Shown here: piece by piece, positions 4,057 through 49,604 of the stretch | How positions within the stretch are numbered: position 1 is the stretch's first letter | How the letters are laid out: every line of letters starts with the position of its first letter | From: Calditrichia bacterium | Lineage (GTDB): Bacteria; Calditrichota; Calditrichia; RBG-13-44-9; J075 | Direction of reading: 5' to 3' | DNA length: 64,000 bases | Assembly: GCA_020635015.1 (NCBI GenBank) | Contig: JACKAP010000006.1 | Span: 76,998-140,997 of the forward strand | Notes under the pieces: model-generated | What the model was told of the DNA's origin: nothing | The model's input: only the letters and a program-made list of their open reading frames with translations | The model's database searches: none | Made by a program: the position numbers and the translations under genes

Positions 4057-4099
4057 GGCCGTGCCCGTCGCGCCGGATTGCGCATGGAAGGGCACGTAT

Positions 4100-4180: not shown

Positions 4181-4192
4181 CAAGGAGTTCAC

Positions 4193-4579: not shown

Positions 4580-4582
4580 CGC

Positions 4583-5476: not shown

Positions 5477-5540
5477 GTTTGGGCGTATATTGAAATTGTT
5501 GATGGGGTGGTGTGCTGTGTTCAAGTTGTTTGCGGTTTTA

Positions 5541-5624
5541 GATCGTTGTTGGTTGTTGGCTTTTGGTTAAAGACCAAAGACCAACAACCAAGGACCAACA
5601 ACCAAGGACCAACAACCAACAAGG
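5541..5624. repeat. Inverted heptamer arrays (GGTTGTT)n ... (CCAACAA/CCAAGGA)n
   Basis: gttgttggttgttggcttttggttaaagaccaaagaccaacaaccaaggaccaacaaccaaggaccaacaaccaacaagg. Confidence 0.8.
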
Positions 5625-5625
5625 T

Positions 5626-6132: not shown

Positions 6133-6141
6133 CCGGCGTCT

Positions 6142-7098: not shown

Positions 7099-7194
7099 TC
7101 GGCGGTTATTGGAAAAACGCGCGAGATGAATGTGAGATTTATTATTTGCGGGTGAAATTAGTTATATATTTTAAAACGGTTCATAGCAAAAAGA

Positions 7195-12294: not shown

Positions 12295-12295
12295 G

Positions 12296-12580
12296 GTGTT
12301 TGCTCGCTTCGCTCGCGATGTTAGTTCGCTTCGCTCACGATGTTTGCTCGCTGGCGCTCGCGATGTTTGCTCACTTCGTTCGCGATATTTGCGCTTCGCG
12401 CGATATTTGTTCGCTACGCTCACGATGTTTGCGCTTCGGGCGTCATGGAACGAAGAATACCTACTCCTCGATACTCGCAAGGTACCGCGCGAAGCGCAAA
12501 TATCGCTCACGAAGTGAGCAAACATCGCGCGAAGCGCAAATATCGTGAGCGACAGCGAGCAAACATCACTCAAATGCCAA
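12296..12580. repeat. Array of about seven degenerate 21-23-bp direct repeats (GATGTTTGCTCGCTTCGCTCGC-like) followed by three or four inverted copies
   Basis: Seen directly: units abut with no spacers, then GCGCGAAGCGCAAATATCG... in reverse-complement. It lies between convergent genes. Confidence 0.8.
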
Positions 12581-12588
12581 ACTTCCCT

Positions 12589-14190
12589 TTAATTTCCATC
12601 CTTCTTCTTCAGTCCGCTAAAATCAATCATACTTTCCGGGTCCAGTGCTTTGTCATTGTGACGTAATTCGAAGTGCAGGTGCGGGGCGGTCGATAATCCG
12701 GAGTCACCGACCAGGCCGATCAATGTGCCGGCATCAACCTGCTGGCCGTAGCTGACCAGGATGGTGTCCATTTGGCTGTAGAGTGTGGTATAATCATCTC
12801 CATGGCGGAGGATGACGGTATTCCCATAATTCTCCCTAAACTTGCTGAGAATTACCGTGCCGGCGGCTGCGGCGTAAATTTCACTGCCCCGGGGGGCGGC
12901 GACATCGATCCCCCTGTGCAGCATCTTGACTTTCTTGACGGGGTGAATCCGATTGCCATAGCCCGAGCTGACATAGCCGGTTTTTATCGGGCAGTCGAAT
13001 GCCGGACCGGCCATTGCCGGCGGATTTTCCGCTACGGGGCGGTCATCTGCCAACGATTGGTAAGAAGCCATCGGTAGTAAAAACAGGCCGATGAGCATGA
13101 GAACGGCGATGCGAACCAGCGGGTGATGCTTTTTCATAAAACTTCCTCCTTTGATATCGTGAATACGTTGTACCAGAAATTGATGATCGTTGCTAAAACC
13201 GGCATAGAGTTTCCAAGGTTCGGTTCCGCTTTGGTTTAGCCTGAGAACGGCCAGCATGCTTTCGCCATATTCGCGGGGAGAAATTTGCCGCCGGGCCAGC
13301 ACCATCCGGTCACAGATCCGTTCCCGGGCCTGGTTGAGCCGGCGGTTGGCGTACCACACCACTGGATGAAAGAAGTAGATCGCCTGCAGTAATATCTGCA
13401 GCCGGATCCACAGATCGTCATAGCGCCGTATATGGGCCATCTCATGAGCGATGATCGCCTCCAGCAGCCGGGGAGTGTGGAGCGCTGCGACCTTCTGGGG
13501 CAAAAAAATCACCGGGCGAAATATGCCGATGGTAAATGGCGTGGTGCAGTCGTCGGCGCTGCAGAGACGTACCGGCCGGGTGATGCGGAAGGCTTGCCGC
13601 CAATGGGCTGCAGTTTCCAGAATGGCCGGATCGGTAATCGCGCGGGCGCGGGCCGTCAATCGGCGGTAGCGCCGCCGTCGCTGCAGGAATAACCCGCCCA
13701 AACCGGCCGCTCCGCCCAACCAGGCCAATAGCAGCAGCATCTGCTGCACGGCAGGGTCCTCAGCCGGGGCGGCAACACCCTCCAACGTCTGATGCTCGCC
13801 CGGGAGATAGCTGTGCGCGCCGATACCCTCGTCAGTCAATCCGTTGGCGCCATCGCTCCCGCTGCTAAAGATCAGCCCTGATATCACCTCCCATGACGCC
13901 TGAAAGGGCGGCCAGGGGGCCAGCAGATTCCGGGCGCTGAGCGGGGAGGCCCATGAAGGAGGCACGACCAGGCGCAGCAGCAGCAGGGTGCACAAGCCGA
14001 GTTGAAGGTACGCGGAGCGCTTGCCGAACAGACGGAGGAGAATCCAGATTGGAATAAATAAGACGATACTGTAGAGCAGTTCTGCCTGAAGAAATGCAAT
14101 CATATAGGCGCCTGCCTGTGCGGTCTGGTTGAGAAGGTCAACGCTCATTTTAGCCCTCATTTTGATCTTCAGTGGATTGATCATCTTCAT
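12589..14190 (-). CDS. BlaR1-like M56 signal-transducer peptidase fused to a C-terminal M23 (LytM) peptidase domain
   Basis: M56 zinc motif 'AHEMAHIRRYD' after TM helices. The C-terminal 'HRGIDVAAPRGSEIYAAAAGTV...GDSGLSTAPHLHFE' is an M23 domain. The start may be further downstream (14148). Confidence 0.8.
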   Translation of the reverse strand: MKMINPLKIKMRAKMSVDLLNQTAQAGAYMIAFLQAELLYSIVLFIPIWILLRLFGKRSAYLQLGLCTLLLLRLVVPPSWASPLSARNLLAPWPPFQASWEVISGLIFSSGSDGANGLTDEGIGAHSYLPGEHQTLEGVAAPAEDPAVQQMLLLLAWLGGAAGLGGLFLQRRRRYRRLTARARAITDPAILETAAHWRQAFRITRPVRLCSADDCTTPFTIGIFRPVIFLPQKVAALHTPRLLEAIIAHEMAHIRRYDDLWIRLQILLQAIYFFHPVVWYANRRLNQARERICDRMVLARRQISPREYGESMLAVLRLNQSGTEPWKLYAGFSNDHQFLVQRIHDIKGGSFMKKHHPLVRIAVLMLIGLFLLPMASYQSLADDRPVAENPPAMAGPAFDCPIKTGYVSSGYGNRIHPVKKVKMLHRGIDVAAPRGSEIYAAAAGTVILSKFRENYGNTVILRHGDDYTTLYSQMDTILVSYGQQVDAGTLIGLVGDSGLSTAPHLHFELRHNDKALDPESMIDFSGLKKKDGN

Positions 14191-18057: not shown

Positions 18058-18428
18058 AATGCGTTGCACTTTTGGTAATTTTGCCAAAAATATGCATAAT
18101 ATTTACACTTTTTGAAAAAGATGCCGTTTGGTGGCGATTGGTAGCCGGCAATATGTTTTGCCGGCATTGCCGATGCTCATCCACAGTAAAGCGCCTGATG
18201 ATGTCAAACCGGTGAATTGACCCGACTTTTCACCCAAAAACCTTCGCGTCGCACCGTCCAGCCGGCAAATGTACCCCCTTCTCTGTGTGAAACATAAAAT
18301 TCGCCAATGTTCGATTGACGCAGCTTACAAATTCGCCGCCGGGAAATTTAATCCGGGACGATGCGCCTCCTGCTGGTAAGATTTTTGCACCGACTTGCTC
18401 TGAGGATAACAGGAGAAGGAGCATTTAT

Positions 18429-20753
18429 ATGGAAGCTATGCTAATAGGAAAGTTTGTCGAGAATTACAAGATCATCGGCGTGCTCGGAAAAGGGGGGATG
18501 AGCACGGTGTTTAAGGCGATCGATCAAACGCTCGACCGGGAGGTGGCGCTCAAGATCATGGAGTCGCAGCTTTCCCGGAGAAAGGATTTTGTTAAGCGGT
18601 TCCGCACGGAAGGGCGCTCTCAGGCCTGCCTGAAGCATCCCAATATCGTCAACATTTATGCCATGCGGGAGGCCGCAGACGGACTCTTCATTGTGATGGA
18701 GTATGTGGCCGGCGGTACGCTCAAGAAGCGCATCGCCCGCGATGGCCCTTTTGCCCCGCTGGAAGCGCTCAATATTCTCAAACAATTGCTGCTGGCGATC
18801 AAGCACGCCCACTCCCGCGGCATCATCCACCGCGATATCAAACCGGCCAACATTTTACTGGACAACAGCGATGTGGTGAAAGTCACCGACTTTGGCCTGG
18901 CCAAAATGCAGCGGGATTTCGGGGTCACCAGCACCGATATTGCCGTCGGCACCCTGGGGTATTCGCCCCCGGAACAGTTGAAGAGCCTCAAGAACACCGA
19001 CCAGCGCAGCGACCTGTATTCGATCGGGATGACGTTCTATGAGATCATTGCCGGTAAGCTGCCCTTTAACGACAACGATTCCAACTTGTCGGTGCAGTTG
19101 GCTATCCTGGAGGGCAAGCTGCCTTCCCCGGATCTGCTCAATCCGGAGATCCCAGCGGAATTTGTGAACCTGATCCGCAAGGCGACCCGGAAAGATCCGG
19201 CCGACCGCTATCAGTCGGCTGCGGAAATGCTTCAGGATGTGCTGGCGCTGGAGCAGCGTTATATCCAGGCCATGCGTAAACGCGACCAGCGGGGCGCTTT
19301 TCGCCGTCTGCCGGCCGGGGCGGCATCGACTGCCGGCAGCACCCGGCCGGGCGGAGCGCTGCCGGAGGAGCGTCCCGCCCCGGCGGCCCCCCCGCAGCGC
19401 CGTCTGCCGGATCGCGCTGCCCAACCGCTGCGCCGGGTGTTTCGTTCATTGCAAAAGCGTTTCGAGGTTAACCTGCGCGCCATGGGGATTTTGACGCTGG
19501 TAATCGTATCCTTGCTGGTGGTGGGGAGCGGGGGATCGATCTATACCCATGGCCAGCGCCCGGATGGAGCAGCAGGCCTCGCCTCACCGGTGATCCCGCT
19601 CTCGATCTTTTCCCGGCCGGAAGGTGCGTCGGTATACCTGAACGGATTTCAGATCGGCACCACGCCGTTGAAGGATTACCTGGTGAGAACCGGCGAGGCG
19701 GCCCTGAAGATCGTTAAAGACAATTATTTGGCGATCGATACCAGCATGGTCTTTTTCCCCGGGGATACGGCGGCATTTTCCCTGCGGCTCTCCTCCGGGG
19801 GCAGCGAGCTGCTTGCCCTGACCGGCAGCGGCAGGCGCTCCCGCCGGGCGGATACGCTGAATGTTCCGCAATACGGCCGCATCAAAGTGATCTCCAGCCC
19901 GCCCGGGGCTGCTATTACGCTCAACGGTACCCCGGTTACGGCGGCGCAAACCCCGCATATTTTCGAAAAAATGCCTCCCGGGAGATACCGGCTGGAGTTG
20001 GCTAAGAAGGGATACCATCCCGCCATCACTCATTTTGAGGTCGTGGCGCAGGAATCGCGGCCGCTGCGGGTCAGCCTGACACCGCAAGTGGGCAATCTGT
20101 ACATTACGTCCAATCCGCCCGGGGCCGATGTCTGGCTCAACGGAAAACGGCTGGCCGGGGTGCGCACGCCGGCGGAACTGCCGGAAATTCCGGTCGGACT
20201 GCAGCGCATCACCCTGCAGAAACCGGGCTTCGAGAAGTATACCGCCCGAGTGGAAGTGGCGCCCCGGAAAACTCGCCAGGTACGGGGGAACTTGCGGCCG
20301 GTACAAGCCCGCCTGAGCGTGGTGGTGCTGCCCTATGGGTCCACTTTCGTGGACGGTGAGTTGAAGAAACACAATACCAACATCCCTTACAATGACGTGC
20401 TGAGCGCCGGGCGATATGTCATTCAAACGGTGCATCCCAAACTGGGTACCTGGGAAAAGGAACTGGTGGTCGATCGATCGCTGCAGCATCAATATATTGT
20501 CGATTTCAACCGTCAATTTAGGCTGCCGGTGACGATCCAGGATGACCGGGGAAACCGTCTCTCCGGCGCCCGGATTTATGTGGATCAGCGGGAAGTTGCT
20601 CTGCATGCGGACGGCACCCTGGAACTGCGAACCGGCCAGCATCTTCTGGAAGTAAGGCGGGAGGGGTATGTACTGCGGGAAGGGCCGATGAAGCTCAATC
20701 TCGACGAGCATTCCGTCAGAACGCTTAATTTTGTTATGGAGCCGGCTCGTTAA
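18429..20753 (+). CDS. Hanks-type Ser/Thr protein kinase with Pro/Arg-rich linker, one TM helix and extracellular PEGA-domain repeats
   Basis: 'HRDIKPANILL', 'DFGLAK' and 'GTLGYSPPE' kinase motifs; TM 'ILTLVIVSLLVVG'; repeated 'PEGASVYLNG', 'PPGAAITLNG' and 'PPGADVWLNG'. ATG at 18429 follows AGGAGAAGGAG. Confidence 0.85.
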   Translation: MEAMLIGKFVENYKIIGVLGKGGMSTVFKAIDQTLDREVALKIMESQLSRRKDFVKRFRTEGRSQACLKHPNIVNIYAMREAADGLFIVMEYVAGGTLKKRIARDGPFAPLEALNILKQLLLAIKHAHSRGIIHRDIKPANILLDNSDVVKVTDFGLAKMQRDFGVTSTDIAVGTLGYSPPEQLKSLKNTDQRSDLYSIGMTFYEIIAGKLPFNDNDSNLSVQLAILEGKLPSPDLLNPEIPAEFVNLIRKATRKDPADRYQSAAEMLQDVLALEQRYIQAMRKRDQRGAFRRLPAGAASTAGSTRPGGALPEERPAPAAPPQRRLPDRAAQPLRRVFRSLQKRFEVNLRAMGILTLVIVSLLVVGSGGSIYTHGQRPDGAAGLASPVIPLSIFSRPEGASVYLNGFQIGTTPLKDYLVRTGEAALKIVKDNYLAIDTSMVFFPGDTAAFSLRLSSGGSELLALTGSGRRSRRADTLNVPQYGRIKVISSPPGAAITLNGTPVTAAQTPHIFEKMPPGRYRLELAKKGYHPAITHFEVVAQESRPLRVSLTPQVGNLYITSNPPGADVWLNGKRLAGVRTPAELPEIPVGLQRITLQKPGFEKYTARVEVAPRKTRQVRGNLRPVQARLSVVVLPYGSTFVDGELKKHNTNIPYNDVLSAGRYVIQTVHPKLGTWEKELVVDRSLQHQYIVDFNRQFRLPVTIQDDRGNRLSGARIYVDQREVALHADGTLELRTGQHLLEVRREGYVLREGPMKLNLDEHSVRTLNFVMEPAR

Positions 20754-27242: not shown

Positions 27243-27403
27243 GATGACCTTCCTTTTCTCAAACTTGTGGTTTGACCGATTATGGCGATCAGCTTAAAAA
27301 TTACGCCGGATCGGCGATTGAATCAATCGAAAAAACCCTTTTTCATCTATTGGATGAACGAGCGTGCGAAAAGTGACATCATGCTGGAAATTGGCGAGAC
27401 GGC

Positions 27404-27600
27404 ATAAAAAAAGCCCGCCGGACAGTTTGCCCGACGGGCCCCTCCTTTAAAAACCCGTTGTACGGTCCCTCTTCCGGCCAACGGCGTTTTCTAAAAATTG
27501 CCCGCCAGTGTCGCCACCTTTGGGCTTTCCCTCCTTAAGGGAACAAATCGCGAGGTAACTGGAGGATGTAAACCGTCCAGTTACCTCCTCCCTCGATGCA
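27404..27600 (-). ncRNA. Candidate structured small RNA or leader ending in a minus-strand intrinsic terminator
   Basis: Perfect 12-bp hairpin GAGGTAACTGGA/TCCAGTTACCTC (27554-27590), a CCGTTG...CAACGG hairpin, and GCCCGTCGGGCAAACTGTCCGGCGGGC followed by T7 on the minus strand (27404-27439). No coding ORF is present. Confidence 0.25.
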
Positions 27601-27767
27601 GGCAGGACCTGCAATACAATGTATTCGATAATTCCGCTTGGATAATATACCAGTTATGATTAGTATCTCCTGTCTTATCGCTAACCGTCTACTATATTGT
27701 TCTGTTGCAGCGGCTGAATATTGAATTTTTTTTGAAAAAAATAAAAATTTTGAACCAGCTTTAAAGG

Positions 27768-28316
27768 TTGCACATGACGCCGAGACAAAATCGATCCGAT
27801 CAGCCGGCAAATCCGGAGGTGGAAAAGCAAGTGGAGGCGCTGCTGGGTTTGAAGGAGCAGATAAGAGATGTGGTGAATTATCACATCTGGAATAAAGATA
27901 ACCGGGAAGATATCCTGCAAGAGATTATCGCGGCCGCTATCACCAGCATCCGCAACGGTAATTTTAATCCCGAGGCCGGGGTGAAATTTACGACCTATGT
28001 CTTTAAAATCGTTAGAAATAAGATCACCGACTATATCAAGTCTCAGACAAAAATCCGGGATAATGAGGTGCCCGGACTGGATATTGATCTATTCCCCGAC
28101 GATCCGGATACCCTATCTGAAGAGGATATGGAGGAATTGCGGGAAGCGCTAAGCGACATGTTGAAGCCATTAAAACCGAAATACCGCGAGATACTGAGGC
28201 TGCGATTTATTGAAGGGCTTTCGATCGAAGCAATCAGCAAAATTCTCGATTTACCGCCCCGGAGAGTCAGCGAACGCATTCATTATGCGATTCAAAAGAT
28301 CCGTAAAAAAAAGTAA
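27768..28316 (+). CDS. ECF-type RNA polymerase sigma-70 factor
   Basis: Region 2 'FTTYVFKIVRNKITDYI' and region 4 'REILRLRFIEGLSIEAISKIL'. Confidence 0.85.
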   Translation: MHMTPRQNRSDQPANPEVEKQVEALLGLKEQIRDVVNYHIWNKDNREDILQEIIAAAITSIRNGNFNPEAGVKFTTYVFKIVRNKITDYIKSQTKIRDNEVPGLDIDLFPDDPDTLSEEDMEELREALSDMLKPLKPKYREILRLRFIEGLSIEAISKILDLPPRRVSERIHYAIQKIRKKK

Positions 28317-28373
28317 AAAAAATCAATATAAGCCCTCATTTTTAGAATAATTATTCGGGAGGGAGTTAAATTT

Positions 28374-29270
28374 ATGCCATGCCATTTAAAAGATCGTGAT
28401 AAAATTATCAGCCGCTACCTGTTGCATGAGCTTAGCGAAGCAGAAGCGATGGAGTTCCAGGCGCACTTTTTCGAATGTGAGGAGTGTTTTCAAGAAATTA
28501 CTTTCAAGCGGAAAGCGTTGCGCTTGTTTCATGACCGCGGTGAAGAAATACTGGAATCCATCGAAACGGAGCCGGAGCCAGAGTTGGATCGAGCGACGCG
28601 TGGATTCTTTGCGCGCTACCGGCCGCATTTCGCTACAGCCGCAGCAGTGTTGATCGTGATGGCGTTGGTCATCCAGTTTACCCCATTGCTGGAAAAACCG
28701 GCTGACCAACAATGGCAGCGGGATATGAAGGTGCCTTATGAATATCGTCCGGGCGACAGTTTCCGCTCTGCCGGTACGCCTAGCGCAAAAAGTACGGCCG
28801 ATTCCCTGGCGGGTCAATTGCAGCGGGGGATAAACCGTTCGATGGGGGCCTATAATCAACCGAATTATGCGCTGATGCTCCAGAATATGGCGCAGTTGGA
28901 GGCGGCCGCAGCGCACTTGCGCGGGCAGCTATCTGCCCAGGATACCGCTGCCGCCATGATCCTGCGCGATTATGAATTCTATTACGGGGTCAGCAGGCTG
29001 GCCCGGGCGCGCACCCAAATAACCGACCTGGATCCGAAATACCGGGAACAGTTGCTCCAGGAAGCGGTCACGAACATCTCCCTGGCCTTAGATCTGGCCG
29101 TGGTTTATGGAAAAACCGATACCGATAAAGAACATTATTTCCTGGGGCTGGCGTACGGCTTTTCCGGTCAATTTTCCCGGGCCGTGGAGGCGCTGGAGAA
29201 GGTTACAGACGTTTCCAACCCGCAGTTTGACAGCCTCGCATCATTCCTCAAATTATGGAAAAACCGTTGA
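28374..29270 (+). CDS. Anti-sigma factor (zf-HC2 zinc finger, single TM, periplasmic helical domain)
   Basis: 'HFFECEECFQE' zinc finger and TM 'AAAVLIVMALVIQF'. It lies directly downstream of the ECF sigma gene. Confidence 0.7.
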   Translation: MPCHLKDRDKIISRYLLHELSEAEAMEFQAHFFECEECFQEITFKRKALRLFHDRGEEILESIETEPEPELDRATRGFFARYRPHFATAAAVLIVMALVIQFTPLLEKPADQQWQRDMKVPYEYRPGDSFRSAGTPSAKSTADSLAGQLQRGINRSMGAYNQPNYALMLQNMAQLEAAAAHLRGQLSAQDTAAAMILRDYEFYYGVSRLARARTQITDLDPKYREQLLQEAVTNISLALDLAVVYGKTDTDKEHYFLGLAYGFSGQFSRAVEALEKVTDVSNPQFDSLASFLKLWKNR

Positions 29271-29495
29271 AGCCTCGCCAACCGATCTTTCCTGGCCGGC
29301 GAGGCCGGTGAATTCGCTCCAGATAGTTGATGCGGTCTCGGGCCGCCGCAACGACTGCAACCGATGAGATTGATCCTCCGCCGTAATCCAGCGCCAAGTC
29401 GACTTAAATCCATCCCTGGATTTGAAAGGCAATATTCGTATATTTTCCGAAGTCAACAACATCTCAACTGCCGGATAGATTACTTCGGGGGCTTT

Positions 29496-32400
29496 GTGAA
29501 AACGAACCTTTTCGAAATTAAGAGAGTGCTTTATCCGTTGATGCTGGTCGCTGGAATAAGCACATTGTTTGCTCAGGAACCCGGGCAGTATGAGCCCGAC
29601 CCTGCTGATCTGTCCCGCCTTTATACCTTCATGGAAACCATCGCCCGGGATTCGGTCGAAGTGCAGATCCGCGCTTACCGCCAATTTGTCACCGATCATC
29701 CGGAGCAGGAGCGGGCCTGCTGGCATTTGCTGGATTTTATGGTGATGGGCGGCCAACTGGAGGAGGCCCGGGATTTCTTTCAGGAGCAGGCGCTCGTTCC
29801 GGCAGGACGGCGCAACAGCCTCTGGATGCTGGCCCGGATCTACGCCCTGGAGGGCAATGCCGCTGCCGCCTTGCAAACCTACCGGGAAGTCTTTCAAAAC
29901 GGAGCGGCCTCCTTTGTGCTGCTGGATGATTTTGCCCTGTTTATCGTCCAAAACAAACTCGACCTGGAAAGTGAAATCGCGCAGTTGTCGATATCATCTG
30001 CCCAGCAAGCGATGATCCGAGTGGAAGTGTTGCGCCGGCGCGGTGAGGTCGAGAGGGTCCTGACCGTGCTTCAGGAAACGCTCCCCGACTATCAAACCAA
30101 CAAGTATTTGCTCCATCTCGCCGCCTACTGTCATCTCAACTCCGGAGACGAGGCCAGCGCGCTGCGTCTTCTGGAAAAAGGTCTTGGGATTGCCCGCGCA
30201 GAGAATGACCGGTTTATGACCGCCTATTACCTGACCATGATGGCGAATGTTGCCGGGGGCAATCGCGGAAAGGCCTATTGGGAAGAGGCCCGCAAGATTT
30301 CCGAAGGTCTTGCCAACCTGCGCCTGTCTATCAATGTCTATGTTGCCAGTTCCTTCGCGCTGGAGGATAAACAAGCTGCTCTGGGCTATATGGAACGGGC
30401 GATTGAAATTGCTACCGCTATCCGAAGCACACCGGAGATCGTATCGGCCTGGCTGTTGAAGGCCCAGCTGGAATCAGATCTGGAAAATTATAACGAGGCC
30501 CTGGATGCGTTTGTGCGGACGGAACAATATCTTGCTCAAGATGGCAATGAGGTTCACCGCTACGATTTTTACCTGGCCCGGGGAAGGTTCTTTCATAAAC
30601 TGCAACTAAACCAATGGGCCCGGAAGGATTACGAAACGGCCTATGAGTGGGCCCGGCAGAATGGCATGCTTTCCTACAACTATCTCGCACTCTCGCGTCT
30701 GGCCGATATCACCCTGAAAGAAAAAGAATATGAACGTGCCATTGTCCTGTACCGGGATTTCTTGAACCTGCACGCATCGAAGGTGCGTGTGTCCAACCGG
30801 GTTTATTGGCGCTATAAATTGGCGGAAGCATACCAGGCACAACATAAATATGCCGAAGCCCAGCAGCAGTTCGCCCGGGTTTACCAAGCGGCAGATCAAA
30901 TTCCGTTTCCGGTGTATAAAGAGCGGATGAAAGCGTATGCCCTGATACAGCAGGTCGCTATTCTGGCGGATCAGGAGGATCTGAAAGGCGCAAGCCGCCT
31001 GCTTAACAACGATGATCTCCGCCAGGTGTCGAAAGACCAGCAGGATGTCAAGATTGCTTATTTGATGATGCAGGGGCGGTTGTATCAACAAAAAGAGGAG
31101 ACAGACAGCGCGATCGTATGCCTGGAGGAGGCATCGAGAATTATCGAGGCGCAGCGCGGGCAACTGAAAGCGGAGGACCTGCGGGTAGGGTTTTTCAGTG
31201 ATAAAAGCAAGGTATATGATGAGCTGGTCAGTTGTTACTGGCAGCGCTATCGGCATGAATCCCAGCCGGAGGATCTGGAGCAAATTTACACTGCGCTGGA
31301 AATGCGCCGGGCACGGGTACTGCGTGATCTCAAATTTTCCGGGAATAAAAATCTCCGGAGGCAATCCAAAGATCCCTTGTATCAAAAATATCATGCGGCC
31401 TGTAATAGACTTCAAGCGCTTCAGCGCAGGATCCGGTTGAACCCCGGGCTTTATAGTGACTTGCAGCTCCAGTTAAAAACCGCCCGCCAGCAGGTAATCA
31501 ATACCCGGCTTCATTTGCTGAATCAATACGGATCGGCGGCTGTAGAGCAGCAGAAACCGCGACTGGATGAACTGGTCAGCGCCATGCAGTTACGGCAGAT
31601 GAGTCTGCTGTTTTACTGTATCGCCGAAAACGAGGCGTTTGTGCTGGTGGTGAACCGGGGGGAGCCCCGGGTGATCGCTCTGGATGCAAAGCTGGCGACC
31701 ATCGATTCCAAGGTGGATTCCCTGCTCCGGCCGCTGCACGAAATGCCGCCGGGTGGAATGGTAGGAATCCCATTCCGTGCGAAACTGGCCAACGAGTTAT
31801 ATCAGATCCTGATCGCGCCGGTTAAAGCGCAGGTCGACCTGGAGGAACAGGTGATGATCATCCCCGACCTGGCACTGGCCGGGCTGCCCTTTGATATACT
31901 GCTGAGCCAGATGCCCTCCCGGGAAGTTTATACCCCGGCCGATCCGGATACCGATTACCGCGATTCCTTTCTGCTGCATCAGCATGCAATCCTCTATGCG
32001 CCCAGTTCCTGGGTGGTACGCTCCGCTTCCAGCGCCGCCGTTGATTCCAGCGCCATACTGCTGCTGGCCAATCCCTTCTCGAATGATTTGTCACGCCCAT
32101 CGGAAAATGCGCTGCCGGTGAACCGGCAGCTTGAATATTTTGAACCCCTGATTTATGCCGATTACGAAGCGCAGATGATCAAAAGCCGTTGCGAGCAGGT
32201 GGAGGTCTTCCAGCACCAGCAGGCCACGCTCAAGGTGATTGATTCCCTCGGCAGCCGGTATGGGGTGCATCATTATTCGACGCACAGCTTTATCGATAAC
32301 GAGTTTGGGGCGTTTTCCGGCCTGTTTTTTGCCCTGAGTGATGATTCAACCGACGATGGCCTGCTGACGGTTTATAAGATTGCCGATCTGGAACTGAATT

Positions 32401-32855
32401 GTGACCTGGTATGTCTGAGCGCCTGCGAGAGCGGGGCGGGAAAGTTGGTGCGGGGTGAAGGGGTGATGGGAATGCCCCGGCAGTTCCTGGCCGCGGGCGC
32501 CCGCCGGGTGCTGATGAGCCAGTGGCTGGTCTCCGACCGCTTTAGCTCGCTGTTGATGCCGCTGTTTTACGAAGGAGCTATTGGGGAGCGTCAGCCCAAA
32601 GCGGTGGCGCTGCAACAGGCGAAGGTCGGCCTGCTGAGCCAGGTATCCGAAGAGCAATTGCGCTATGCCCATCCGTTTTTCTGGGCCGGTTTTACCCTCT
32701 ACGGCGAGCCGGAGATTGCGCTCGGCCCGCGCTTTCCGCTCTTTTCCGGAAACTGGTGGTTTGTCCTGCTGCTGGGCGCTATTGCCGGTGGGTATTTTGT
32801 CGCCGTCTGGCGCCGAATGAACGGCACCCCCCATTCTCGCGACCGGCGCACCTAG
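29496..32855 (+). CDS. Multi-TPR protein with C-terminal CHAT (caspase-like) peptidase domain and C-terminal TM anchor
   Basis: TPR-like repeats throughout. CHAT His/Cys core 'YSTHSF...LVCLSACESGAG' and terminal TM 'WWFVLLLGAIAGGYFVAVW'. GTG 29496 gives a signal peptide (KTNLFEIKRVLYPLMLVAGISTLFAQ); alternative start is ATG 29364. Confidence 0.75.
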   Translation: MKTNLFEIKRVLYPLMLVAGISTLFAQEPGQYEPDPADLSRLYTFMETIARDSVEVQIRAYRQFVTDHPEQERACWHLLDFMVMGGQLEEARDFFQEQALVPAGRRNSLWMLARIYALEGNAAAALQTYREVFQNGAASFVLLDDFALFIVQNKLDLESEIAQLSISSAQQAMIRVEVLRRRGEVERVLTVLQETLPDYQTNKYLLHLAAYCHLNSGDEASALRLLEKGLGIARAENDRFMTAYYLTMMANVAGGNRGKAYWEEARKISEGLANLRLSINVYVASSFALEDKQAALGYMERAIEIATAIRSTPEIVSAWLLKAQLESDLENYNEALDAFVRTEQYLAQDGNEVHRYDFYLARGRFFHKLQLNQWARKDYETAYEWARQNGMLSYNYLALSRLADITLKEKEYERAIVLYRDFLNLHASKVRVSNRVYWRYKLAEAYQAQHKYAEAQQQFARVYQAADQIPFPVYKERMKAYALIQQVAILADQEDLKGASRLLNNDDLRQVSKDQQDVKIAYLMMQGRLYQQKEETDSAIVCLEEASRIIEAQRGQLKAEDLRVGFFSDKSKVYDELVSCYWQRYRHESQPEDLEQIYTALEMRRARVLRDLKFSGNKNLRRQSKDPLYQKYHAACNRLQALQRRIRLNPGLYSDLQLQLKTARQQVINTRLHLLNQYGSAAVEQQKPRLDELVSAMQLRQMSLLFYCIAENEAFVLVVNRGEPRVIALDAKLATIDSKVDSLLRPLHEMPPGGMVGIPFRAKLANELYQILIAPVKAQVDLEEQVMIIPDLALAGLPFDILLSQMPSREVYTPADPDTDYRDSFLLHQHAILYAPSSWVVRSASSAAVDSSAILLLANPFSNDLSRPSENALPVNRQLEYFEPLIYADYEAQMIKSRCEQVEVFQHQQATLKVIDSLGSRYGVHHYSTHSFIDNEFGAFSGLFFALSDDSTDDGLLTVYKIADLELNCDLVCLSACESGAGKLVRGEGVMGMPRQFLAAGARRVLMSQWLVSDRFSSLLMPLFYEGAIGERQPKAVALQQAKVGLLSQVSEEQLRYAHPFFWAGFTLYGEPEIALGPRFPLFSGNWWFVLLLGAIAGGYFVAVWRRMNGTPHSRDRRT

Positions 32856-40611: not shown

Positions 40612-42765
40612 TCACTCCCCGGGTGTCTGTTCGTAATACTCTATTTTATCTAACTTTAATTCGACGCCATTCTCCTGGAGATAATTGAATCCTTCCCCTT
40701 TGCGGAACACCAGTTGGCGGGTGCCAGCCTTGCGCTTGAACGTAAAATGCCATCTGATAAATCCGCCTCGGATCTGCTGGGCCTGCTTGAGCAGAATGGT
40801 TTCGTCGGGCAGTTTTTCCAGGGAATTGTCGATCTCCAGGAAGCAGCGCAGGCCGAAAATGGTAAACAGGTCCAGGAAGTGCACCAGGTAACGGGGCAGG
40901 GTGTAATCCAGGGAGGTCTGGCTGGTCCAATGAAGTTTGCCCGGCGCTTCCGGAAACACCACATCGGTGAGGGTCTGGGCCAGCAGAAACAGGGCGCTGT
41001 TGCGCTTTCCCTGATACTTTTTCAGCGAGAGCACTCCTTCAGACAGGTCGAAATAGAGCCGGTCGCCGTCCTGGTTTTCCAGGCAGAGATTGTTGTAAAA
41101 ATCATTGTGCAGATGCCAGGATTCCTCAGAGCTCAACTTGCCGCTGTTCAGGATCAACTGCCATTTTTTGTAAATTTCATCGAAGAAATATTTGCTGTAG
41201 TCGGCATCATAGCGCAGGTTCTCCACCCGGTCATCTTTGTTGAGGATGCCCTTGGGAAGCAGGCGGTCGGCGGCGTTATCCTGTTTGATCAGCAGATTGG
41301 AAAATTCAAAATAAAGTGCCGGGGCGCCGATGTAATCCTGAGCCTGAAACTGCAGGTGGATATGCGGGTAGGGAGAACGGCCGGAATTGCCGCAGTGCCC
41401 GATTTTATCACCTTTACTGACGGTATCCCCTGCTTTGACGCTGATCGAATCCTTCTGCAGGTGAGCGATGCAGCTGTAGAAATAGGGGGCATGCTCGATG
41501 ATCACGCAGTTGCCCCAGTTGTCGCGGGGATTGGCCTGCCCGGGGCGGTTGTCATAGATGTCATTTTTGACCCGAACGACCGTGCCGTCGGCCGGGGCGA
41601 GCACCAGGGCGTTGTAGCAATAGTAATCGCTCAGCTTCTCCCCGCTGCCGCTGTAAATGCTGCCGCCGGTGTCGCGGATCATGAAGTCGATCCCATAAGC
41701 CCATTCGTCTTTATGGGTATATTCGCCTTTGAATGCCTGGCTCACCACCCAGTCGCTGTAAAAGGGCAGGGAGATCGCCACCCCGTAGCGCCGCCACATC
41801 TTCAGGTTTTCCCGGTAGCTGCTCAGGTTCTCCTCAGGTGATAGCGGGTGGGAACTCAATTCCAGCCCCAGCGAGGGATGGAGGCGCATCTTTAAGGCAA
41901 ATACCACCAGTAGCACCGAGAGGTTGAAAGACAGCGCAAGAGAAGAGAGATAAAACGGCATGGCGATCTCCAGCGCGATCAGGTTCATGTAAACGATAAA
42001 GATGCCGAAGATCGCCAGCAGGAGGCTGGATAGATTCGGGATCAGGAACACCCCGCCCAGCGCCAGGGCGGTGAGCATATAGTTGAAGCCAAGATATTGG
42101 CTGTGAATGAACGCTTCGCTCACCCCGAAAAATTCGTGGATGTAATACCCGCCCAGCCAGCCGATCCCGATCAGCAACAGCGAGAGGCGGGAATAAATCA
42201 GCAGCCCGGCGGCGATCAGGATGCCTGAGATCGGGTTGATGGTGAAAAAGATCGCCCCGAGGTTCTTGAAAAACAGGTTGAGGCTAAGGGGCAAGGCATG
42301 CAGGGAGACGTCAAACACCTGCCAGCGCACCTCCGAAGGGGTCAGGTAGCCGCTGCCAAAGCTGGCGATGATGGCGGTGTAGATGATCAGATTGAAGGGG
42401 AGGCTCATGTAGGGCAGCCCGTAGGCGCTCAAGAAGGTTTTGATCCACATGGTGAAGACGGTCATCAGGATCACCGCAATGATGACCAGGATGACCAGGT
42501 GGAGGGAGACATCGTAATAAAGGCTCAGGCCTAACGCCACCAGAATACCGTTGAAGCCCCATAAGCCTTGCCGTATCTCCTGGCGGCTGAATCCCAGCAG
42601 GTAGGCGACCAGGTTGGCAATCAGCGCCCCTCCCAGGCCGAAGATGCCGTGGGAGGGAATGACCAGGGTTGCCAGCAGGATAATCAATCCCAATGCCTGA
42701 TGTTGTGAAAAGAATATGAGCGAATAGCTTTTTAAGGTACTCTCTGTCCAGAATTTCGCATTCAT
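40612..42765 (-). CDS. Polytopic membrane protein with N-terminal urea-transporter (UT)-like domain fused to M23 metallopeptidase and C-terminal domain of unknown function
   Basis: N-terminal 'ALGLIILLATLV...GLWGFNGILVALG' resembles the UT-family LSGLLILVGL...GLYGYN. M23 core 'HAPYFYSCIAHL...GHCGNSGRSPYPHIHLQF'. This is the first gene of a six-gene operon. Confidence 0.7.
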   Translation of the reverse strand: MNAKFWTESTLKSYSLIFFSQHQALGLIILLATLVIPSHGIFGLGGALIANLVAYLLGFSRQEIRQGLWGFNGILVALGLSLYYDVSLHLVILVIIAVILMTVFTMWIKTFLSAYGLPYMSLPFNLIIYTAIIASFGSGYLTPSEVRWQVFDVSLHALPLSLNLFFKNLGAIFFTINPISGILIAAGLLIYSRLSLLLIGIGWLGGYYIHEFFGVSEAFIHSQYLGFNYMLTALALGGVFLIPNLSSLLLAIFGIFIVYMNLIALEIAMPFYLSSLALSFNLSVLLVVFALKMRLHPSLGLELSSHPLSPEENLSSYRENLKMWRRYGVAISLPFYSDWVVSQAFKGEYTHKDEWAYGIDFMIRDTGGSIYSGSGEKLSDYYCYNALVLAPADGTVVRVKNDIYDNRPGQANPRDNWGNCVIIEHAPYFYSCIAHLQKDSISVKAGDTVSKGDKIGHCGNSGRSPYPHIHLQFQAQDYIGAPALYFEFSNLLIKQDNAADRLLPKGILNKDDRVENLRYDADYSKYFFDEIYKKWQLILNSGKLSSEESWHLHNDFYNNLCLENQDGDRLYFDLSEGVLSLKKYQGKRNSALFLLAQTLTDVVFPEAPGKLHWTSQTSLDYTLPRYLVHFLDLFTIFGLRCFLEIDNSLEKLPDETILLKQAQQIRGGFIRWHFTFKRKAGTRQLVFRKGEGFNYLQENGVELKLDKIEYYEQTPGE

Positions 42766-42964: not shown

Positions 42965-43369
42965 GGTTGATGGGTTAATGGGGAAAAGGATAAAGGATAA
43001 AGGATAAAGGATAAAGGATAAAGGTTGAAGATACTGGATACTGGATACTGGATAAAATAAAAATGCTTGTTCAGGTGTGAAAATCGGGTTCATTTAAGCA
43101 TCCAGCATCCAGCATCCAGCATCCAGCATCCAGCATCCAGCATCCAGCATCCAGCATCCAGCATCCAGCATCCAACATCCAACATCCAGCATCCAACATA
43201 TACTCATCAGACAAAGCCATCCGCAAAAACTTGCAAATTTCCTATTGACCTGACCCGATCCCTTCAACATATTTCCGCCGCAATGAAAAATCAACCCATC
43301 AACCCATCAACCCATCAACCCATCAACCCATCAACCGATCAACCCATTAACCCATCAACCCATCAACCC
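42965..43369. repeat. IR-L: composite heptamer block (GGATAAA)5-(ATACTGG)3-unique core-(GCATCCA)12-(ACATCCA)-(CCATCAA)9 running up to the S9 peptidase start codon
   Basis: Seen directly. Its first 200 bp or so are the reverse complement of 45296-45545. Confidence 0.9.
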
Positions 43370-45295
43370 ATGAAAACATTACCCTATGGCACCTGGCCAT
43401 CACCGATTACCGCCGATCTCATCGCTGCCGCCGGGCGGCGGCTGGGCGATATCGCCGTCGATGGAGATTCGGTTTACTGGATCGAAAGTCGCCCGGAGCA
43501 GGAGGGGCGCAATACCATCATGATGTGGAACCCCGGCGGGGAGTTTCGGGAAGTTACCCCGCCGCCTTTTAATGTGCGCTCCCGGGCCCATGAATACGGC
43601 GGCGGCGCTATGGCGGTGTATGGCGGCCGGGTGTTCTTTGTGAACGATGCAGATCGCCAGATCTATCACATTCCTCCCGGCGGATCCCCGCAGGCGCTGA
43701 CCAGCGAATCCGATACCGCCTATGCCGATATGATCCTCGATCCGGCGCGCCAGCGGCTGATCCTGGTGCAGGAGCATTATTTTGATGACAGCCGCCCGCC
43801 CCGCGACATGCTGGCCGTGCTTTCCCTGCGCGGCCGCCCGGGATATTGTGAGCCGCTGGTGAGCGGGAACGATTTCTATGCCAGTCCCGCCCTGAGCCGC
43901 GACGGCCGGCAGCTTTGCTGGCTGAGCTGGGACCATCCGGCAATGCCCTGGAACGGTACTGAATTATGGGTGGCGGAGGTAGGGGATGACGGTCAACTGC
44001 GCCGCCGGCGCCGGATTGCCGGAGGCGCGCAGGAGTCGGTGTTCCAGCCGCAATGGGGTACAGACGGCACCCTGTATTTTGCTTCCGACCGCAGGGAGGG
44101 CTGGTGGAACCTCCATGCCTGGGATGGGCACACCATCCGGCCGGTGCTGGAGATGGCTGCGGAGTTCGCCTTGCCCCAGTGGGTTTTCGGAATGTCGACC
44201 TATTGTATTTTGAATGAGCGTTGTATCGCCGCTGCGTACACCCGGGAGGGGCGCTGGGAGATGGGGCTGATCGATCCGCAGCGCGGTGATCTGGAGGCCC
44301 TGGCGCTGCCCTTTAGCTATATTACCCAGGTTCGCGGCGCCGGGGAGCGGATCGCTTTTGTCGGCGCTGCGCCGGATGCAGCGGAGGCGGTTTATACCCT
44401 GGAACTGCCGTCGCAGCACCTGCAGATGTTGCGGAAATCCAGCGATCTGGAGGTGGATGCCGGCTATATTTCCACCCCGCAGGCAGTGAGTTTTGAAAGT
44501 GATGGCGAGGAGGTGCACGGCTTTTTCTATCCTCCCAGCAATCGCGATTTCAGCGCTCCGGAGGACGAAAAACCTCCGCTGATCGTATTCATTCACGGCG
44601 GTCCCACGGCGGCGGCGAACAGCGGATTGGATCTTCGCAAACAATTTTGGACCAGCCGCGGCTTTGCGGTGCTCGACGTCAACTACCGGGGCAGCACCGG
44701 CTATGGGCGGGCGTACCGGGAAAGCCTCAACGGCCGTTGGGGGGTGGCCGATGTGCAGGATTGCGTCAACGGCGCCCGGCGTCTGGCGGCGCAGCAGCAG
44801 GCGGATCCGGAAAGGCTGCTGATCCGCGGCGGCAGCGCCGGGGGATTCACCGCCCTGGCGGCGCTGACTTTTCACGATTGTTTCCGGGCCGGGGCGAGCT
44901 ATTATGGCATCAGCGATCTGGAAGCGCTGGAGCAGGAGACCCACAAGTTTGAATCGCGCTACAATCATCAATTGATCGCCCCCTATCCCGCCGGTAAGCC
45001 AGTCTACCGCGAACGCTCGCCGCTGCACCATGCCGGGGATCTGAACCGCCCGGTGATCTTCCTGCAGGGCCTGGAGGATCGGGTGGTGCCCCCCGGTCAG
45101 GCGGAAAGAATGGCCCACGCCCTGCGTAAACGCGGCGTGCCGGTGGCTTATCTTACCTTTGAGGGCGAAGGGCACGGCTTCCGCAAGCCGGAAACCATCC
45201 GCCGCGCCCTGGAAGCGGAGTTGTTCTTTTATGGAAGGGTGCTGGGATTCGAGCCCGGGGAGAAGCTTGATCCGGTGCAGATAGATAATTTGTGA
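43370..45295 (+). CDS. S9 family serine peptidase (acylaminoacyl-peptidase / dipeptidyl-aminopeptidase-like beta-propeller + alpha/beta-hydrolase)
   Basis: Nucleophile elbow 'GGSAGG' and a C-terminal 'HGF' His. The true start is ATG 43370 (MKTLPYGTWPSP); the upstream 100 codons of the listed ORF translate heptamer repeats (SIQHPAS..., QPINPST...). Confidence 0.85.
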   Translation: MKTLPYGTWPSPITADLIAAAGRRLGDIAVDGDSVYWIESRPEQEGRNTIMMWNPGGEFREVTPPPFNVRSRAHEYGGGAMAVYGGRVFFVNDADRQIYHIPPGGSPQALTSESDTAYADMILDPARQRLILVQEHYFDDSRPPRDMLAVLSLRGRPGYCEPLVSGNDFYASPALSRDGRQLCWLSWDHPAMPWNGTELWVAEVGDDGQLRRRRRIAGGAQESVFQPQWGTDGTLYFASDRREGWWNLHAWDGHTIRPVLEMAAEFALPQWVFGMSTYCILNERCIAAAYTREGRWEMGLIDPQRGDLEALALPFSYITQVRGAGERIAFVGAAPDAAEAVYTLELPSQHLQMLRKSSDLEVDAGYISTPQAVSFESDGEEVHGFFYPPSNRDFSAPEDEKPPLIVFIHGGPTAAANSGLDLRKQFWTSRGFAVLDVNYRGSTGYGRAYRESLNGRWGVADVQDCVNGARRLAAQQQADPERLLIRGGSAGGFTALAALTFHDCFRAGASYYGISDLEALEQETHKFESRYNHQLIAPYPAGKPVYRERSPLHHAGDLNRPVIFLQGLEDRVVPPGQAERMAHALRKRGVPVAYLTFEGEGHGFRKPETIRRALEAELFFYGRVLGFEPGEKLDPVQIDNL

Positions 45296-45545
45296 GTGGA
45301 TGGGTGGATGGGTTGATGAGTGGATGGGTGGATGGGTTAATGGGTTGAGATGCTGGATGCTGGATGCTGGATGCTGGATGCTGGATGCTGAAATGAACCC
45401 GATTTTCGCACCCGAACAAGCATTTTTATTTTACCCAGTATCCAGCACCTTCAACCTTTATCCTTTATCCTTTATCCTTTACCCTTTATCCTTTATCCTT
45501 TATCCTTTTCCCCATTCACCCATCAACAAGCAATCGCAAAACCAC
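45296..45545. repeat. IR-R: inverted copy of the IR-L composite heptamer block
   Basis: Its reverse complement reads ttgatgggtgaatggggaaaaggataaagg...ggttgaaggtgctggatactgggtaaaataaaaatgcttgttcgggtgcgaaaatcgggttcatttcagcatccagcatccagc..., over 90% identical to 42969-43160. Confidence 0.9.
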
Positions 45546-49478: not shown

Positions 49479-49604
49479 GGGGGACGAAGGGTGAAGGATG
49501 AAGGATGAAGGATGAAGGATGAAGGATGAAGGATGAAGGATGAAGGATGAAGGATAAAGGATAAAGGATGAAGGATAAAGGATGAAGGATGAAGGATGAA
49601 GGAT
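49479..49604. repeat. (GGATGAA/GGATAAA)n heptamer tract, about 17 units
   Basis: gggggacgaagggtgaaggatgaaggatgaagg...ggataaaggatgaaggataaaggatgaagg. Confidence 0.9.

Follow-up and report, generated by a model that had tools for sequence, protein, structure and literature searches.

A conserved module of an ECF sigma factor, a zinc-binding anti-sigma factor and an anchored TPR-CHAT protein as a candidate system for caspase-like regulated proteolysis

What is the role of a caspase-like protein that is encoded directly behind a sigma factor of the extracytoplasmic function (ECF) type and an anti-sigma factor bound to the membrane? This question is raised by a locus at positions 27768-32855 of a 64,000-nucleotide stretch of DNA (contig JACKAP010000006.1 of assembly GCA_020635015.1, positions 76,998 to 140,997; hereafter the window) that belongs to a metagenome-assembled genome (MAG) of an uncultured member of the Calditrichota (Calditrichia). 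Three plus-strand open reading frames (ORFs), whose coordinates were checked, fill this region and encode an ECF-type sigma factor, a single-pass anti-sigma factor of the zinc-binding (ZAS) type, and a large protein that combines tetratricopeptide repeats (TPR) with a CHAT domain. GenBank has only generic domain names for them (MCB9088836.1, “zf-HC2 domain-containing protein”; MCB9088837.1, “CHAT domain-containing protein”). A preliminary description, made from the DNA letters alone, had read the three genes as one module and had suggested that the CHAT protein serves as site-1 protease or sensor for the sigma factor. The gene content is confirmed by the ORFs and by domain matches; the extent to which the functional suggestion can be upheld depends on conservation, topology and comparison with known systems.

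Conservation of the three-gene module

By its domain matches, the product of the first gene is a member of the ECF (group 4) sigma-70 family. It reaches 95.7 bits with the NCBIfam model TIGR02937 (sigma70-ECF, cutoff 42.9) as well as 36.6 and 43.9 bits with Pfam Sigma70_r2 and Sigma70_r4, and Sigma70_ECF matches too. None of the NCBIfam equivalog models reached its cutoff for this protein, and the type III-E sigma model NF041236 matches weakly (44 bits, cutoff 100). The nearest solved relative in a PDB sequence search is SigW of B. subtilis (E 1.6e-8), whose ZAS anti-sigma factor RsiW is under regulated intramembrane proteolysis (cited in PMC10028731), and by analogy this relationship may count in favour of a proteolytic control also in the present case.

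The preliminary description had staked its reading on the conservation of the gene order in relatives, and this conservation was found. CHAT relatives with 73%, 44% and 31% identity are each encoded downstream of an anti-sigma homologue, and further members that were detected with a profile of the anti-sigma periplasmic domain have a sigma-like gene before and a CHAT orthologue (~1115 aa) after them. Among species-representative genomes searched with a CHAT orthologue profile, MAGs labelled KSB1, “bacterium” and “Cytophagia” share the arrangement. A scan of genome contigs with the single anti-sigma sequence gave no match; a metagenome scan added 30 loci, which were taken as informative with at least 700 bp of downstream sequence for the CHAT gene (n=23) and at least 1 kb of upstream sequence for the sigma gene (n=19). 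In total, with ~40 loci at hand, 33 of the 34 that are informative for the downstream side have a CHAT orthologue behind the anti-sigma-type gene (11/11 early loci; 22/23 metagenome loci, all 22 with both genes on one strand), and the 26 that are informative for the upstream side all have a sigma-like gene there (7/7 early, 19/19 metagenome). The only informative locus that lacks a CHAT orthologue, L033, has merely 1.5 kb of downstream sequence, and in L039 the orthologue is separated by three inserted ORFs and a distance of 2.3 kb. The synteny holds down to ~29% CHAT identity. As the flanking genes vary between loci, it is the module that is conserved and not the neighbourhood, and the recurrence in ~40 independent loci places the adjacency far beyond chance. 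We are therefore nearly certain that the module is a genuine and widely conserved functional unit.

The family is also large. A word-indexed profile search that returned only eight clusters had given the impression of a tiny family, which was overturned by an exhaustive HMMER search that found 249 representatives of the anti-sigma periplasmic domain at 50% identity, 180 of them at E<=1e-10. This domain is always C-terminal, and a transmembrane (TM) segment is present in 134 of 136 full-length members.

Within the family, three types of organization can be distinguished. Clade A comprises the window and the loci L001, L008, L002 and L010. Here a canonical ECF sigma factor is combined with a ZAS anti-sigma factor of ~300 aa and the CHAT protein, and a small gene of 106-109 aa lies between the genes of the latter two. 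In clade B (L005, L007), a ZAS anti-sigma factor is paired with a sigma factor of ~216 aa that has diverged but still reaches the TIGR02937 cutoff. Clade C (L003, L014, L015 and ~14 metagenome loci, e.g. L034, L043, L049 and L052) has a four-part layout. Its sigma-like protein (~215-223 aa) was recognized through profile-profile comparison alone (hhalign probability 92.6%, E 4.6e-7). The HxxxCxxC motif is found at the end of a soluble protein of its own (137-181 aa), whose gene lies between those of the sigma-like and the TM protein; the TM protein (~380 aa) has the periplasmic domain and is devoid of the zinc motif, and the CHAT protein is the fourth part.

The small gene of clade A was weighed as a fourth member of the core and dismissed, as the small ORFs at this position are non-homologous between clades and the gene is decayed in the window and in L001. 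In the window, the anti-sigma stop codon (29268-29270) is followed by a spacer of ~225 bp up to the CHAT start. The accessory gene is intact in L002, L008 and L010 (106-109 aa, “MAQITDADLNDLFEAL...”), L001 keeps just its C-terminal half, and the window keeps a faint trace; tblastn of the small L008 and L002 ORFs against the gap matched with E 0.017-0.065 in the window, compared with 1e-12 in L001. In clades B and C, unrelated small ORFs occupy the position between the anti-sigma and CHAT genes.

Architecture and topology of the two membrane proteins

The anti-sigma factor had been described as a single-pass protein with an HxxxCxxC zinc finger, and both features are readily recognized. Its N-terminus matches Pfam zf-HC2 with 30.9 bits (cutoff 22.2), and the motif residues H31, C35 and C38 are invariant throughout the family alignment. 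The AlphaFold2 model, with a predicted local distance difference test score (pLDDT) of 74, consists of N-terminal helices (residues 8-63), the TM helix (residues 88-106) and a three-repeat TPR-like domain (residues 140-298). Judged by sequence and model, the N-terminus is a ZAS (class I) domain with its HxxxCxxC in a helical domain, and as it is adjacent to a sigma gene at all informative loci, it can be expected to bind and inhibit the sigma factor. The TM segment has a hydropathy of 2.22 over 19 residues and is preceded by four K/R within 15 residues. Because the zinc motif lies N-terminally of this sole TM segment, the C-terminal 190 residues should be extracytoplasmic. Foldseek matches of the TPR-like domain are with peptide-binding TPR proteins (FKBP51/52, CHIP, Sec72, SycD; E ~1e-2), and PDB sequence searches, made with profiles of the anti-sigma factor and the CHAT protein and with the sigma factor itself, yielded nothing beyond generic TPR or ECF matches.

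The most conspicuous part of the anti-sigma factor is the linker between the membrane and the TPR-like domain. Residues 102-140 have a low pLDDT and are presumably flexible, and yet two of the five columns that never vary among 43 diverse aligned members of the family, P121 and R131, are found here, 15-30 residues beyond the TM helix. The family consensus reads YVYDxxVPYEYxxSxLR, and the motif starts at a median of 19 residues past the TM helix in those 81 of 136 representatives that fit the search pattern. Since this is a sharply conserved linear motif in a flexible, membrane-proximal segment, the linker is, on the basis of alignment and model, a candidate protease cleavage site or docking peptide.

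The CHAT protein corresponds closely to what had been described, with 1119 aa instead of the reported 1120 when translated from GTG 29496, and with ~19 TPR hairpins in the AlphaFold2 model, for which “about 20 TPR-like repeats” was a reasonable estimate. The model is of high quality (pLDDT 90.7; predicted template modelling score, pTM, 0.88) and shows ~38 helices in residues 36-678, followed by an alpha/beta CHAT domain; Pfam picks up only few of the modelled hairpins. The CHAT domain matches PF12770 with 185 bits (E 2.8e-54). The described His...Cys pair is represented by His930 in “HYSTHSF” (codon 32283-32285) and Cys977 in “LSACESG” (codon 32424-32426), and neither residue varies among 52 diverse TPR-CHAT proteins. 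By sequence and model, the domain has a clan CD caspase-like fold with an intact His-Cys dyad, and proteolytic activity is predicted. The top Foldseek matches of the model in the PDB are human separase (4e-14), Csx29 (3e-13) and DdvA (4.5e-12), the DdvA match being among those with the best query coverage (TMq 0.39). On the basis of the model, the protein therefore belongs to the separase/craspase/DdvA-type TPR-CHAT fold class without being uniquely near to DdvA. Only the fold search established this link, as the PDB sequence searches with the three module proteins found no DdvA, DdvS, Csx29 or separase.

Where the protein starts is decisive for its localization. The public gene models start downstream of GTG 29496, at ATG 29541 (ENA, 1104 aa) or TTG 29565 (NCBI MCB9088837.1, 1096 aa), and cut away the signal peptide, which would mislead localization predictors into calling the protein cytoplasmic. 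The orthologues with clear starts (L001, L003, L005, L007, L015) have a basic n-region, a hydrophobic core and an AxA-like site, and L008, whose protein is 75% identical, has TTG where the window has GTG 29496; these orthologue starts support GTG 29496, which was therefore chosen. A signal-peptide-like segment is present in all clear-start orthologues, in 9/9 early family members and in 18/18 complete metagenome orthologues. At the other end, a hydrophobic helix (residues 1087-1109 in the model) is found in 9/9 early family members and again in 18/18 complete metagenome orthologues, and wherever the contig extends far enough, it is followed by a tail with 2-7 K/R. The signal peptide and the C-terminal anchor of the preliminary description are thus both recovered. 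Because of the signal-peptide-like N-terminus and the C-terminal TM segment with its K/R tail, the positive-inside rule places the TPR-CHAT body on the extracytoplasmic side, tethered by its C-terminus. According to these heuristics, it is in every orthologue located on the same side as the anti-sigma sensor domain, in agreement with what had been assumed; the opposite placement, which the preliminary description had named as a refutation of its reading, is thus not borne out.

The combination of parts is not restricted to this family. In a set of 83 TPR-CHAT homologues, 62 have a signal-peptide-like N-terminus and only 12 a C-terminal TM anchor, and the anchored CHAT proteins that were examined are, wherever the flanking DNA is long enough, nearly always encoded near a sigma gene and a gene for a TM partner. 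Four distant anchored loci were looked up, one of which (L026) was too short to judge. L023 (1-14007, 43% guanine plus cytosine, GC) has three CHAT genes, two of which abut a convergent sigma gene and a gene for a single-pass TPR protein of ~240 aa. In L024 (Lewinellaceae), a sigma-like gene and a gene for a TM-TPR protein lie upstream of an S8 peptidase gene and the CHAT gene. The CHAT genes of both loci encode a signal peptide and a TM anchor. S8 subtilases adjoin the CHAT gene in L024 and also in L007. L025 (73% GC) carries two tandem operons (3794-7751 and 9968-12751), each with a sigma gene, a gene for a ZAS anti-sigma factor whose periplasmic domain is not of the TPR type, and a CHAT gene; with their overlapping stop and start codons, the tandem copies are translationally coupled. 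A further metagenomic protein, P0070 (L021, 5001-8681; 1226 aa), fuses a ZAS domain (HCFICEEC), a TM segment and TPR-CHAT in a DdvA-like layout, with no sigma gene within 5 kb. Five loci of generic CHAT proteins (L016-L020) gave no sigma or anti-sigma match with the models used here. As far as can be read from the sequences, the logic of a sigma factor, a membrane partner and an anchored CHAT protein recurs with different parts in unrelated lineages. Since fused forms such as DdvA and P0070 hold the same parts, a physical coupling can be argued for the split forms as well.

Relation to known systems, a possible mechanism and its alternatives

Three described systems have to be compared with the module. 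The closest in layout is DdvA-DdvS of Myxococcus (PMC11506125, 2024), in which a single-pass ZAS anti-sigma factor has a periplasmic part of ~900 residues that is itself a TPR-CHAT protein. According to the model for DdvA, which was termed “unprecedented”, a signal causes the CHAT part to cut the juxtamembrane linker autoproteolytically, in trans within a dimer, after which RseP acts (PMC11506125). The CHAT domain of DdvA is devoid of a three-helix motif, and an active site completed across a dimer is among the traits that define a DdvA-like protein. Both systems have an ECF sigma factor, an N-terminal HxxxCxxC on a single-pass membrane protein, a large periplasmic TPR-CHAT part and a flexible juxtamembrane linker as proposed target, and for both a CHAT-triggered regulated intramembrane proteolysis can be modelled; the fold likeness is evident from Foldseek matches with 8rw5 and 8rot (E 4.5e-12 and 9e-12, TMq 0.39). 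Unlike DdvA, the module distributes anti-sigma factor and TPR-CHAT over two genes and not over one polypeptide, its CHAT protein has its own signal peptide and C-terminal TM segment, and its anti-sigma factor has a small TPR domain. PDB profile searches detected no sequence similarity of the module proteins to DdvA or DdvS, there is no CBASS/CRISPR defence island beside the module, and while DdvA-like proteins are reported from Myxococcota and one Comamonas only (PMC11506125), the module occurs in Calditrichota, KSB1 and Bacteroidota-type lineages. Most likely, the module is a two-protein (“split”) version of the DdvA-DdvS design.

A cleavage in trans of a separate sigma-sequestering protein, as proposed here, has been demonstrated for the type III-E Craspase (Cas7-11-Csx29), in which the TPR-CHAT protein Csx29 cuts Csx30, the inhibitor of the ECF-like CASP-sigma (PMC10028731); this is the precedent for a TPR-CHAT protein that cuts a sigma inhibitor. 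The folds are again alike (8eey_B, E 3e-13, TMt 0.51). In contrast to Craspase, which is cytoplasmic, RNA-guided and encoded in a CRISPR locus with Cas7-11/gRAMP, Csx30 and Csx31, the module has no cas genes or array in the window, its protease is extracytoplasmic and anchored, and its inhibitor is a ZAS membrane anti-sigma factor and not Csx30. In the actinobacterial group ECF54, according to PMC8999054 (citing Huang 2015 and Casas-Pastor 2021), proteins with carboxypeptidase, subtilase and CHAT domains occur in the conserved context and a proteolytic control has been proposed, and PMC7826278 and PMC8999054 describe the group as one without an anti-sigma factor. ECF54 resembles the module by the genomic link of an ECF sigma factor with a CHAT protein, and subtilases are present also in L007 and L024, but the module always has its cognate ZAS anti-sigma factor, belongs to another phylum and has no subtilase at the window locus. 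The module is thus neither DdvA-like nor a Craspase nor an ECF54 system, although it resembles all three in outline. The preliminary claim that the pairing lies outside the known ECF activation mechanisms needs to be narrowed, as DdvA, Craspase and ECF54 precede it; what appears to be undescribed so far is the split, trans-acting, anchored form, of which no description was found in the full-text literature searched (subscription papers and the ECF Hub group descriptions lie outside it).

Canonical systems such as RseA/DegS/RseP of E. coli and RsiW/PrsW/RasP of B. subtilis share with the module a single-pass anti-sigma factor and a membrane-associated extracytoplasmic site-1 protease, for which the CHAT protein is here the candidate. 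Like DegS, the CHAT protein combines a catalytic domain with a peptide-binding module, which is a PDZ domain in DegS and TPR here. Different from the canonical systems, the candidate protease is a clan CD cysteine protease (CHAT) and not a serine or metalloprotease, and it shares its operon with the sigma/anti-sigma pair.

A split-DdvA or DegS-like scheme, in which the anchored TPR-CHAT protein senses a periplasmic protein or peptide signal and makes the site-1 cut in the anti-sigma linker, has in our judgement about an even chance of being correct. In the resting state, the zinc-binding N-terminal domain of the anti-sigma factor would, as expected from its family membership, hold the sigma factor at the inner membrane face, while its small TPR domain would reach into the periplasm, as would the flexible linker next to the membrane. 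The exported TPR-CHAT protein would be located beside the anti-sigma factor with its C-terminal helix in the same membrane, as topology and strict co-occurrence suggest. A periplasmic signal, probably a protein or peptide that binds to the large TPR superhelix, would then activate the His930/Cys977 dyad, which would cut the linker in trans; a plausible position for this cut is the invariant Arg131 of the PY-x-Y...Phi-R motif or its immediate vicinity. Several clan CD peptidases, such as separase, metacaspases and gingipain R, cut after Arg. This cut would strip off the periplasmic domain and thus be the site-1 cleavage, and the truncated anti-sigma factor would be passed on to a site-2 intramembrane protease of the RseP type and to cytoplasmic proteases, whereby the sigma factor would be released.

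Several points weigh against this scheme. The contact between the two proteins, the cleavage and its site, the participation of a site-2 protease and the nature of both signal and regulon are inferred, and even for DdvA the CHAT-mediated site-1 cleavage is a proposal, with no cleavage observed (PMC11506125). Csx29 cuts at M427-K428 and not after Arg (PMC10028731), and as CHAT specificity hence varies, Arg131 as P1 residue is a guess. The topology was derived from hydropathy and positive-inside heuristics, which are consistent family-wide, and not from a dedicated predictor, and the same-side arrangement hinges on the use of GTG 29496 in place of the starts in the public gene models. No M50 (site-2) peptidase is found among the annotated ORFs of the 64-kb window. 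A search for a shared ECF-type promoter (-35 GAAC / -10 CGT) upstream of the sigma genes gave nothing usable, so that the regulon of the sigma factor could not be identified from it, and the operon promoters look sigma-70-like instead of ECF-type autoregulatory. In clade C, finally, the zinc motif resides on a separate small protein, and the coupling to the sigma factor may therefore be more complex than a simple cut of an anti-sigma factor.

Moreover, synteny alone cannot distinguish a regulator of a sigma factor from its target (PMC7826278), and ECF operons frequently hold their own targets. The CHAT protein could in principle be the output of the system: the sigma/anti-sigma pair would sense envelope stress by other means and drive the co-transcribed anchored protease, which would act on other periplasmic proteins in quality control, defence or programmed cell death. 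Secreted TPR-CHAT proteins without a sigma neighbour are indeed common, as seen from the 62 of 83 homologues with a signal-peptide-like N-terminus and from L016-L020, the subtilases beside the CHAT gene in L007 and L024 suggest a set of protease outputs, and a similar context is described for ECF54 (PMC8999054). Nevertheless, the fused anti-sigma-TPR-CHAT proteins DdvA and P0070 are hard to explain by such a role, no ECF-type promoter was found ahead of the operon or of the CHAT gene, and the anchor, which is rare among homologues (12/83) and yet nearly always found near sigma and TM partner genes in the examined cases, fits better to an action on a membrane protein. We consider an output function rather unlikely. 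The co-occurrence, the shared compartment and the fusion argument would fit equally well to a TPR-CHAT protein that is a periplasmic co-sensor or shield and not the site-1 protease, guarding the TPR domain or linker of the anti-sigma factor as RseB guards RseA, or relaying a conformational signal, while its protease acts on itself or on another periplasmic substrate. Both partners have TPR modules, which typically serve protein-peptide binding, and the DdvA study assigns to the bulky TPR-CHAT part a steric role in blocking RseP (PMC11506125). The invariance of the dyad across the family and in 52 distant homologues argues for a retained catalysis, however, and an invariant P...R motif in a flexible linker, as opposed to a folded interface, is no less suited to a protease substrate than to a docking peptide. 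In our view, the co-sensor or shield function is still slightly less probable than an output function. That the sigma/anti-sigma pair and the CHAT gene are functionally unrelated and only incidentally adjacent is extremely improbable: the absence of direct functional data is the sole point in favour, and the survey, with ~40 loci between unrelated flanks, CHAT identities down to ~29% and L033 with its short downstream sequence as the only case of the periplasmic domain without a CHAT orthologue, effectively refutes it.

If the site-1 scheme is correct, it may apply far beyond the window. We tentatively propose, as a generalization that is conceivable but falls short of being probable, that periplasmic, membrane-anchored TPR-CHAT proteins are a widespread unrecognized class of trans-acting caspase-like site-1 proteases for ECF signalling, which would cut their partner anti-sigma factors at the juxtamembrane PY-x-Y...Phi-R motif and would span Calditrichota, KSB1, Bacteroidota-type lineages and at least one high-GC lineage. 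One large sub-clade would be a four-component relay, with the zinc-binding domain on a separate soluble protein and a membrane adaptor as CHAT substrate.

Genomic setting and wider meaning

The module lies in the chromosomal core, ~11 kb from dnaA, whose product has the Bac_DnaA, DnaA_N and DnaA_C domains. Judging from dnaA, the replication origin probably adjoins the window, and the cumulative GC skew climbs monotonically over the whole window. The genes around the module are of the housekeeping type (an M61 peptidase, a nucleotidyl transferase, a thioredoxin-like protein, a GFO/IDH/MocA oxidoreductase and a BNR protein). A reading of the module as defence system was rejected: in PADLOC, neither the anti-sigma factor nor the CHAT protein was matched, the sigma factor had no more than a weak partial match with MzaA (18 bits), and the window contains no CRISPR array and no cas genes. 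Many PADLOC PD-T4-6 models match a Ser/Thr protein kinase that carries three PEGA domains together with a CarboxypepD_reg-like domain, which seems to be generic kinase similarity.

For the operon, a putative sigma-70-type promoter that scores below the threshold of the promoter tool would give a 5' untranslated region of ~95 nt; its counterparts are TTGGAT-N17-TAGTAT in L001 and TTGGAT-N17-TACAAT in L002. Between the thioredoxin-like gene and the sigma gene, a non-coding conserved element is found on the minus strand that shares 84% DNA identity with L002, while the neighbouring proteins share just 37-44%. It ends with a strong intrinsic terminator (followed by T7) that shows compensatory changes between loci, and a second CCGGCGGGC copy in the element could pair with the 5' arm of the terminator, as in a terminator/antiterminator layout. 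Rfam gave no known family match for the element, ARAGORN no tRNA or tmRNA, and the minus-strand ORFs that cover it lack conservation. Conceivable functions are those of a leader or of a riboswitch-like element for the thioredoxin-like gene downstream of it, or of a small RNA in divergent orientation to the sigma operon.

Further observations in the window concern many arrays of 7-8-nt tandem repeats, with AAAGGAT, AGCATCC, ATCAACCC and GGATGAA among the units. The arrays that flank an S9 prolyl-oligopeptidase gene are mutual reverse complements in mirrored order and hence form a composite inverted repeat around this gene. Two unusual fusions to Peptidase_M23 are encoded, one with a urea-transporter (UT) domain (717 aa) and the other with a BlaR1-type M56 sensor (533 aa). 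The coordinates of all these features and of the module are compiled in Table 1.

Table 1. Features of the module locus, of the remaining window and of clade C relatives (window positions unless a locus is named)
Feature	Position	Strand	Basis or remark
Putative sigma-70-type promoter of the operon, TTGGAT-N17-TAGTAT	27638..27666	+	Weak, predicted; conserved in L001, L002
ECF-type sigma factor, 182 aa	27768..28316	+	Start TTG 27768; alternative ATG 27774
Single-pass ZAS anti-sigma factor, 298 aa	28374..29270	+	zf-HC2; AlphaFold2 model; alignments A2, A11, A14
HxxxCxxC zinc-finger motif HFFECEEC (H31/C35/C38), predicted cytoplasmic	28464..28487	+	Invariant in A11
Anti-sigma TM helix, residues 88-106	28635..28691	+	Sole hydrophobic segment
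Juxtamembrane linker motif DMKVPYEYRPGDSFRSA (D117...P121-Y-x-Y124...R131-S-A133), candidate CHAT cleavage/docking site	28722..28772	+	
Predicted periplasmic three-repeat TPR-like sensor domain, residues 140-298	28791..29267	+	pLDDT 83-96
Small accessory gene remnant, ...DLSWPARPVNSLQ...	29266..29367	+	Decayed in window and L001
Signal peptide-TPR-CHAT-TM protein, 1119 aa	29496..32855	+	Start GTG 29496; full ORF 29364-32855, 1163 aa
Signal-peptide-like N-terminus, M/V-KTNLFEIKRVLYPLMLVAGISTLFA | QE	29496..29573	+	Orthologue starts; heuristic
TPR-like superhelix, ~19 hairpins, residues 36-678	29601..31529	+	DSSP on AlphaFold2; Pfam TPR_12, TPR_8, TPR_2, ANAPC3
CHAT caspase-like domain, residues ~700-1075	31593..32720	+	Pfam PF12770, model
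C-terminal TM anchor WWFVLLLGAIAGGYFVAVW, then basic cytoplasmic tail RRMNGTPHSRDRRT	32754..32852	+	Hydropathy; tail with 5 K/R
Clade C modules	L014 2590-9333; L015 2023-8493; L003 39-5392		
dnaA	15568-17037		Bac_DnaA, DnaA_N, DnaA_C
Ser/Thr protein kinase	18315-20753	+	
Non-coding conserved element	27398-27720 (core 27398-27565)	-	
Intrinsic terminator of the element	27405-27445	-	Then T7
S9 prolyl-oligopeptidase gene	43067-45295		
UT domain-Peptidase_M23 fusion	40612-42765	-	
M56 sensor-Peptidase_M23 fusion	12589-14190	-	
Tandem-repeat arrays	42985-43371, 45293-45508, 3207-3326, 12297-12567, 49482-49604, 57008-57060		

The main value of the module lies in its separation of protease and substrate. 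For DdvA, the proposed mechanism could not be tested, in part because both belong to one polypeptide and the signal was not known, whereas a sharply conserved candidate cleavage motif and two separate proteins make the module a tractable test bed for CHAT-triggered regulated proteolysis. As the family comprises hundreds of sequence clusters, extends to other phyla and is found outside defence islands, it suggests that a caspase-like control of ECF sigma factors may be broader than phage defence.

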